Source: Escherichia coli (GTDB lineage Bacteria; Pseudomonadota; Gammaproteobacteria; Enterobacterales; Enterobacteriaceae). From it: DNA of 64,000 nt. The notes beneath the pieces are model-generated. The model searched no databases. It was not told the origin of the DNA and saw only the letters and a list, made by a program, of their open reading frames with translations. Position 1 is the first letter of the stretch. Every line of letters begins with the position of its first letter. A program made the translations under genes and the position numbers. The DNA is taken from assembly GCF_003334305.1 (NCBI RefSeq), contig NZ_QOWS01000003.1. One strand, given 5' to 3'. This document shows, piece by piece, positions 18,619 through 20,179 of this stretch.

Positions 18619-20179
18619 ATGAGCAAAATATCAGGTTGGAATTTTTCTCAAAACATTACATCAGCCGACAATTGTAAACAAAAAAATGAAGACTTAGATA
18701 CCTGGTATGTGGGAATGAATGATTTTGCCCGAATTGCCGGAGGGCAGAATAGCAGAAGCAATATTCTTTCTCCCAGAGCATTTTTGGAGTTTTTGGCTAA
18801 GATATTTACCCTGGGTTATGTGGATTTTAGCAAACGCTCCAACGAAGCGGGTAGAAATATGATGGCTCATATTAAGTCCTCATCTTATATCAAAAATAAT
18901 GATGGTAGTGAGATAATGAAGTTTGTTATGAATAATCCTGAAGGGGAGCGAGCGGATTTATCTAAGGTGGAAATAGAAATTACACTTGCCTCAGCTTTTA
19001 ATAATGGGATTCGTGAAGGACATACAGTCATTATATTTACACAACCTGATGGTTCGACTAATCGTTATGAAGGGAAGTCCTTTGAAAGAAAAGATGAGAG
19101 TTCATTACACCTGATTACTAACAAGATTCTGGCGTGTTACCAACGCGAAGCTAACAAGGAAATAGCTCGTCTATTAAATATTCCGCAGGAGTTAAATAAT
19201 TCTCAGGACTTGAATAACTCGCAGGTGAGTTGTAAAGATTCAGTTGATTCTACGATTACGGATTTATTAGAAAAACCATTGAATAATGCATTATTAGCAA
19301 TAAGGAAAGAACATCTGCTATTAATGCCTTATGTATGTAATGAATCGATTTCATACTTGCTTGGTGAAAAAGGGATACTGAAAGAAATAGATGACCTTAA
19401 CGCAGTAAATAATTATCTTCTTAATAATAAGAAAGCTACTGACAATGAAATTAATGACATCAAAGTTAACCTGTCTCATATTCTTATTGATTCCTTAGAT
19501 GATGCAAAAGTTAACCTTACACCGGTCATCGATTCGATTCTGGAGATTTTTTTAAAATTCCCATATATTAATGATGTAAGAATACTGGATTGATGTTTTA
19601 ATAAAAGAATGCAATATTTTGGTGATTCTGAAAAGATAAAGTATGCATGCTCCGTGATAAATCATATTGATTTTAGCCGCGATCAATCTAAAGATTTTAG
19701 CTGCGATCAATCTAAAATTAAAATAGCTGAGACCTTATTTTTCAATCTCGATAAAGAACACTATAAAAATAGCCGTAAATTACAGGAATTGATTTGGGAT
19801 AAGTTGGTTGCATATGTCAATGATTTTAACTTAAGCAATCAAGAAAAATCACGCTTAATACTAAGGTTATTTGATGATGTTAAGTTGCTATTTAATGAAG
19901 TGCCTGTCAGCATTTTAGTAAATGATATTTTTTTTGAAGGATTTTTTCATGAAGCAACCTGATTTTGCTAAGTGGTATTTCTATCAATTACTTAAAGATT
20001 ATGAGGGCGAACAGCTGTATCTTAATGAGTTAGGATATGTTTATGGTAATGAAGAAAAAACAAATGAAATTGTAAAAAACAATCCGGGTTATGTCGTTAA
20101 GATTTTTGAAGAAAAGATGGTTAATGAATTAAAAATTAGAACAAGAATGATGAAAATCCTCCGGAAGATTTACGTATAG
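18619..20179 (+). pseudogene. yjgL: yjgL-like AT-rich gene, apparently disrupted (in-frame TGA at 19591-19593, then a frame change near the T8/T6 runs at 19928-19947)
   Basis: ORFs 18619..19593 and 19609..19962 share one frame and are separated by a single TGA; ORF 19922..20179 continues in another frame across homopolymer T runs. Confidence 0.5.

Follow-up and report, generated by a model that had tools for sequence, protein, structure and literature searches.

The locus described here lies in a 64,000-nucleotide (nt) stretch of the Escherichia coli assembly GCF_003334305.1 (contig NZ_QOWS01000003.1), referred to below as the window, and is the gene yjgL, known as icaR in Shigella, which occupies positions 18619–20208 between tabA and argI. 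Its identity follows from the neighbouring genes, which fix the position: a TetR-family gene (bdcR) and tabA (18035–18496) on one side, and the ornithine carbamoyltransferase gene (argI/argF, 20280–21284, minus strand, convergent with yjgL) and rraB on the other, reproduce the gene order of K-12, and the order of open reading frames (ORFs) in the window agrees with the annotated loci of strains K-12, M8 and THO-008. By megablast, the locus is 89.5% identical to K-12 across the 74% that aligns, and its conceptually repaired translation is collinear with the 604-amino-acid (aa) YjgL of K-12 and the 550-aa protein of THO-008. The initial annotation, made from the DNA letters alone, had called the gene yjgL-like and put the K-12 product at about 600 residues, and both points hold. 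The G+C content across yjgL is 29–38%, as against 47–55% in the flanks. We conclude with high confidence that yjgL, an AT-rich, horizontally acquired gene confined to Escherichia and Shigella, is a dead gene in this strain.

The lesions of the gene were defined against the intact alleles of THO-008 (550 aa, the closest intact allele) and K-12. The first ORF (18619–19593, plus strand, as are all parts of the gene described below) comprises 324 codons, represents the N-terminal fragment of the pseudogene and ends at a premature opal codon, TGA 19591–19593, produced by a TGG-to-TGA change at 19593 that replaces Trp325 with a stop. Beyond this codon the ancestral frame continues from 19594 to 19935, its repaired translation remaining collinear with the 550-aa allele up to a run of T residues; the second ORF (19609–19962, 117 aa) follows this frame from ATG 19609 and then runs out of frame to TGA 19960–19962. 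The T run itself (T8, 19928–19935) is the second lesion, a frameshift caused by one T more than in the ancestral T7, as defined by alignment to intact alleles. T7 is present in K-12, THO-008, H7, Z22-6 and the alleles L012–L016, and T8 in the window, M8, LR58, S21, SRY206, E2863 and APEC_AN-25. From 19936 to 20153 the ancestral coding sequence now lies in frame +1, where it forms the body of the third ORF (19922–20179, 85 aa); alleles of 519 aa in other strains read straight through this segment.

The third lesion, missed in the initial annotation, emerged from the alignment to yjgL of K-12 and other strains that had been proposed there. It is a deletion of 64 bp with its junction at 20153/20154; lost were one 11-bp copy of the direct repeat AAATCCTCCGG and the 53 bp that had separated it from the other. 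The sole remaining copy lies at 20154–20164; THO-008 and H7 carry both copies and the intervening sequence. The third ORF passes the junction and continues to a fortuitous new stop, TAG 20177–20179. The extra T and the deletion together amount to −63 (+1 and −64), which brings the homologous frame back to frame 1 past the junction, where positions 20154–20208 encode a remnant of the ancestral C terminus, NPPEDLRIAIEKYGWNN, followed by the ancestral stop, TGA 20206–20208. The pseudogene annotated by NCBI in the genome of strain M8, whose locus is 100% identical to that of the window, ends at the equivalent of 20208. The extent of 18619–20179 first given to the gene therefore has to be lengthened to 18619–20208, and correction of the TGA and the T8 would not yield one continuous ORF, the refuting outcome named in the initial annotation, since the gene is still broken by the deletion. 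The remaining elements of that description were reproduced: the first two ORFs share one frame and are split by a single TGA; the third is in frame +1 and overlaps the second across T8 and a T6 run (19942–19947); and a GAAGGA motif (19936–19941) sits 7 nt 5′ of ATG 19949. As for the frame change attributed to the poly-T tracts, T8 is a lesion, whereas T6 is shared unchanged by intact alleles and does not count as one.

The shorter length of the locus relative to K-12, also pointed out at the outset, amounts to 225 nt and stems mostly from 180 nt of an in-frame 18-bp repeat, not from decay. Alignment accounts for the difference in full: relative to the window, K-12 has 180 nt more in the 18-bp repeat and 30 nt less in a block at a 24-bp duplication that it lacks, the remaining parts being −1 nt (T8), +6 and −9 nt (small insertions and deletions, indels), +64 nt (the deletion) and +15 nt (a later stop in K-12). 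The 18-bp repeat (19174–19225), which encodes the hexapeptide LNNxQE, has 2.9 copies in the window and 12.4 in K-12 according to Tandem Repeats Finder, and the intact 550-aa alleles are equally short; judged from these alleles, it is a length polymorphism and not a lesion. The 24-bp in-frame tandem duplication (19669–19716, DFSRDQSK twice) is a further length polymorphism, with one copy of the unit in K-12 and APEC_AN-25 and three in protein P0158. In H7 (L004), a (ATATGAAT)n octanucleotide expansion lies inside the stretch equivalent to the deleted 64 bp. Together with the 18-bp and 24-bp repeats, it makes up at least three independent indel-prone repeat tracts in yjgL.

The spread of the lesions was determined in a set of 5,426 complete E. 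coli genomes that stem from many hosts and laboratories; the yjgL locus is present in 4,823 of these, and in 1,222 at ≥99% identity to the window (megablast). The diagnostic queries were short, with each 28-nt megablast seed obliged to span the diagnostic bases. A 38-mer across the deletion junction was found in 1,316 genomes, about a quarter of the total, and a 45-mer containing the TGA in 236, its TGG version occurring in 2,292. A 45-nt query centred on T8 gave no match, presumably because the low-complexity filter of BLAST masked this T-rich query, and the run was counted instead with 95-mers at exact identity only, so that the resulting T8 figure, 987 genomes (IAI1 included), is a lower bound; the exact T7 95-mer, with otherwise identical flanks, is present in 148. 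The exact 324-aa, 447-aa and 76-aa products each occur on at least 1,000 public contigs. The presence of the lesions in hundreds of independently assembled complete genomes excludes the errors in homopolymer length or base calling that the initial annotation had considered. All three lesions are inherited, not artefacts, and the unusually wide spread of the haplotype indicates that the inactivation is old and not specific to this strain.

Two intermediate genotypes are found among the sequenced strains. Alleles that combine T7, the deletion and TGG have a 519-aa ORF ending in KILRKIYV and a stop (proteins P0155 and P0126), which is the product that the window would have if the deletion were its sole lesion. 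The DNA of this genotype was confirmed in L012/L013 and in the complete genomes CFSAN061772 and M10; the 519-aa alleles are still flagged as frameshifted by NCBI. Alleles that combine T8, the deletion and TGG (S21 and E2863) are divided into products of 447 aa and 76 aa, the latter called from the equivalent of ATG 19949. In the window, M8 and LR-58-2, the TGA is added to the deletion and T8.

Since these intermediates exist and the lesion counts nest (1,316 genomes with the deletion, at least 987 with T8 and 236 with the TGA), we infer that the most parsimonious order of events is deletion, then T8, then TGA. The 64-bp deletion would have arisen first, by slippage or recombination between the 11-bp direct repeats AAATCCTCCGG, exchanging the last ~38 residues for 8 others and leaving the 519-aa ORF. 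Replication slippage would then have extended T7 to T8, introducing an earlier frameshift and leaving a 447-aa ORF with a 76/85-aa remnant. A G-to-A transition would finally have changed the TGG of Trp325 to an opal codon and reduced the ORF to 324 aa.

Decay of yjgL has also occurred independently in other strains, with a 5-bp deletion in SRY206, a 1-nt deletion in Z22-6, another frameshift in 13E0780, the (ATATGAAT)n expansion accompanied by a premature stop in H7, and IS3 or IS903B insertions elsewhere. The truncation points of the alleles fall at 191, 315, 324, 390, 439, 447, 493 and 519 aa. The ratio of non-synonymous to synonymous substitutions (dN/dS, Nei–Gojobori method) between yjgL alleles is 0.41–0.60, and 0.57 between two intact alleles, whereas the same genome pairs give 0.02–0.04 for tabA and argI on either side; dN of yjgL is about 50 times higher than that of these neighbours. 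By this comparison of alleles, yjgL is weakly constrained, which, together with its published transcriptional silence in E. coli without MxiE and IpgC, would account for its repeated decay. From the nested accumulation of lesions and the weak constraint, we infer that the fragments are functionless.

HMMER, run in full against 1.84 billion representative proteins, found 71 clusters, one full-length and 70 fragments of less than 215 aa, and no relative outside the yjgL family, which marks the gene as an often-broken Escherichia/Shigella orphan; a word-indexed homologue search returned near-identical E. coli proteins only. Within the first 30 residues of the product (window 18619–18720, about 34 codons), 11 differ from K-12, THO-008 and H7, and these first ~34 codons correspond to the part of Shigella IcaR in which the type III secretion signal resides. 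Further into the gene, identity rises markedly, which gives yjgL the look of a recombinant mosaic built from segments of different alleles.

Domain searches with the parent protein gave no family in NCBIfam and no PADLOC hit. In the intact allele, Pfam returned only the SopA central domain (PF13981) over residues 282–336 (55 residues; E = 0.016, score 16.1, sub-threshold) and no match to the SopA_C catalytic domain. PHROGs yielded one weak family of unknown function (E = 0.004), and the PDB sequence search chance matches only (E ≥ 0.38). The C termini of the K-12 and THO-008 proteins have no conserved C-terminal Cys. Membership of the SopA/NleL HECT-like effectors (PF13981/PF13979) was considered and rejected, given a match below significance, no SopA_C domain and no PDB relative. 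An AlphaFold2 model built from a 19-row family alignment is unreliable (mean predicted local distance difference test score 49.7, predicted template modelling score 0.34) and suggests at most a small β domain (about residues 85–153) ahead of a long helical C-terminal region, the part that the lesions would remove.

Sister genomes are annotated inconsistently at this locus, with one pseudogene in some and two proteins in others. In M8, NCBI records a single pseudogene, ‘DNA-binding protein; frameshifted; internal stop’, equivalent to window positions 18619–20208, and in S21 (L006) and E2863 (L010) a 447-aa ‘DNA-binding protein’ and a 76-aa ‘hypothetical protein’, WP_001309158.1. The label ‘DNA-binding protein’ stands without any detectable domain behind it.

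The spacer between tabA and yjgL (18497–18618), which covers the promoter together with the 5′ untranslated region, is nearly invariant among the nine alleles compared, especially at 18544–18577, despite the polymorphic coding sequence. Two overlapping MxiE-box-like motifs (AGAGCGTTTTTTGATAT and TGATATTTTTTTGTGAG, 18544–18571, plus strand) form a predicted candidate promoter element of yjgL/icaR and are identical in all nine alleles, K-12 included. Measured against the MxiE consensus GTATCGTTTTTTTANAG, the best match in the spacer (18544–18560) has five mismatches and the overlapping second has six; none with three or fewer mismatches was found there. The single such match in the whole window, at 62456, is at chance level and was discarded. 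A simple promoter scan returned fewer sites than in shuffled sequence.

Silue & Campbell-Valois (2022), who renamed the Shigella orthologue icaR (also gem3), described a functional MxiE box of icaR with an overlapping second one, and activation of the K-12 orthologue by MxiE and IpgC (PMC9241512). The type III secretion apparatus of Shigella exports the icaR/yjgL product as an MxiE/IpgC-dependent substrate; Shigella IcaR is truncated at its C terminus (~31 kDa when tagged) and is secreted through an N-terminal signal (PMC9241512). Without the pINV virulence plasmid, yjgL of E. coli is silent, but it can be switched on by supplied MxiE and IpgC; the length of the gene differs by phylogroup, phylogroup-specific changes are noted, and icaR/yjgL has been regarded as a probable ‘fossil gene’ (PMC9241512). 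In Shigella flexneri 2457T, yjgL is MxiE-dependent and a pseudogene (PMC9769918).

That Shigella IcaR is itself truncated, yet produced and secreted via its N-terminal signal (PMC9241512), lends something to the improbable alternative that the fragments are functional, with the 324-aa piece keeping the secretion signal and the DNA-binding region predicted in the literature, the 76-aa protein acting independently and the truncation having been selected. C-terminal truncation recurs in many lineages, the promoter region and start are intact and conserved, and ATG 19949 has both the GAAGGA upstream and a 76-aa call by NCBI in some sister genomes, to which extent the independent small gene suggested there in the initial annotation finds a counterpart. 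However, the 76-aa ORF is the ancestral yjgL frame continuing past the frameshift from a conserved internal Met. Truncation points are scattered between 191 and 519 aa, as in random decay, and some of the 11 N-terminal differences fall among the first 20 residues, which are needed for secretion in Shigella; the gene is, moreover, silent in E. coli without MxiE and IpgC (PMC9241512). Little credence is likewise given to the proposal that recurrent loss of the C-terminal helical region of YjgL/IcaR, by insertion sequences (IS) in Shigella and by deletion, T8 and TGA in a large E. coli clade, was selected and not neutral. Were this true, the conserved promoter and the N-terminal ~320 residues would constitute a functional short protein, expressed once the cell acquires an activator of the MxiE/IpgC type or an invasion plasmid.

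Some observations do weigh against an inert relic with the history proposed above. The perfectly conserved upstream region beside a polymorphic coding sequence hints that something at the locus is still maintained, and a dN/dS of ~0.5 is below 1, meaning that some constraint acts, or once acted, on the intact gene. The 324-aa N-terminal fragment may still be produced at a residual level in this strain. A reversion of T8 to T7 in the 519-aa alleles could, in place of an order from deletion to T8, explain their genotype.

Programmed recoding, by which opal read-through and slippage on U8 (+1, ribosomal or transcriptional) would give a near full-length, regulated YjgL, is very improbable. Insertion of Trp at UGA by the near-cognate transfer RNA (tRNA-Trp) would restore the ancestral residue, a +1 shift of tRNA-Phe in U8 would recreate the ancestral peptide NDIFLKDFF exactly, and low-level slippage on long A/T runs is established in E. 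coli. Unlike recoding sites, however, which orthologues share, these sites are not conserved, the other aligned lineages having TGG and T7, and alleles with zero, one or two lesions all exist. No stimulatory element was seen upstream of the T run, no structure search having been made, and the Shine–Dalgarno-like GAAGGA lies on its downstream side; a U after UGA, in addition, makes an efficient termination context. Both events would be needed on one messenger RNA, and the product would still bear the C terminus derived from the deletion. The initial annotation had left read-through open beside gene decay. As a designed feature, read-through or frameshifting fails on the absence of the TGA and the extra T from K-12, THO-008, H7 and Z22-6, on intermediates that show stepwise accumulation and on the third, frame-breaking deletion downstream; decay is borne out, the TGA and the T run being lesions relative to the TGG and T7 of intact alleles.

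A poly-T phase-variation (contingency) switch, with yjgL on at T7 and off at T8, also has very little in its favour as an explanation of the locus. T7 and T8 are indeed both seen on haplotypes that are closely related: L012/L013, which have T7, differ from the window at five substitutions, among them the TGA site, and yjgL holds other indel-prone repeats. A run of 7–8 T is, however, short for high-rate switching in mismatch-repair-proficient E. coli, and T8 is fixed, with identical flanks, across 987 genomes or more. On the haplotype of the window, those T7 alleles that were checked are already frameshifted by the deletion, and the later upstream TGA shows that the off state is not being reversed; the distribution of T7 (148) and T8 (987) appears to fit a single ancestral change better than switching. 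That the interruptions are sequencing or assembly artefacts in an intact gene has next to no probability: T runs are error-prone on some platforms, and the assembly BS-01, set aside as a candidate T7 revertant, has several scattered 1-nt gaps typical of such errors, but the genome and contig counts given above stand against it, and the deletion would break the frame even with the TGA and T8 corrected.

The pseudogene reading of yjgL thus retained is that of an ordinary pseudogene of a known decaying gene that had been annotated before; added here are the third lesion, the true extent of 18619–20208, the ruling out of sequencing error and a reconstruction of the stepwise path. The correct annotation is one pseudogene at 18619–20208 with three lesions, not two or three hypothetical proteins. 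Beyond this the locus is of little importance, other than as a tidy natural case of stepwise decay of which all intermediates are still present among sequenced strains. A gene that is weakly constrained and silent in the H-NS/MxiE manner supports the published view of icaR/yjgL as a ‘fossil gene’.

Between the convergent yjgL and argI, a G+C-rich hairpin (20232–20263, strand not assigned; folding energy −20.2 kcal/mol, z = −4.66) is predicted and is likely to be a terminator shared by the two genes; a simple consensus terminator scan found none and missed this hairpin. Elsewhere in the window, a tRNA-Leu(CAA) gene at 34214–34298, probably leuX, is followed within 350 bp on the same strand by a 372-aa ORF (34646–35764), which is the usual arrangement of an integrase-bearing island at leuX. 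A full-length Rfam match to Ysr276, a Yersinia ‘antisense’ small RNA family, lies at 28047–28241 (plus strand, 184.9 bits). The magnesium riboswitch aptamer of the mgtA leader (10598–10713, plus strand) and a naRNA4/REP-type (repetitive extragenic palindromic) element (345–422, plus strand) are at their expected K-12-like positions.

Among known systems, the superficial likeness of the locus to the +1 site of prfB, the −1 site of dnaX and UGA read-through or selenocysteine genes consists of an in-frame UGA and a slippery U run at a frame change. It differs from them in having unconserved sites, no upstream Shine–Dalgarno stimulator and a frame-breaking deletion downstream; an element resembling a selenocysteine insertion sequence was not evident, none having been sought. 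The likeness to SopA/NleL is restricted to weak local similarity to the SopA central domain and to the role of Shigella IcaR as a type III secretion substrate. The locus resembles the icaR/yjgL of PMC9241512 in being the same gene in the same place, AT-rich, with the same conserved upstream region and a disrupted C terminus. Published disruptions in Shigella and in some E. coli consist of IS insertions and 3′ deletions, in contrast to the direct-repeat deletion, homopolymer +1 and nonsense codon found here, and the three-step haplotype is not described in the text consulted of PMC9241512, though it is flagged by NCBI annotation. The closest correspondence is with the bacterial pseudogenes that NCBI labels ‘frameshifted; internal stop’, with which the locus has in common that its lesions show against intact orthologues and have accumulated in nested fashion, that constraint is relaxed and that the gene has been inactivated several times independently in the species, and from which it differs in nothing material except the unusually wide spread of its haplotype.

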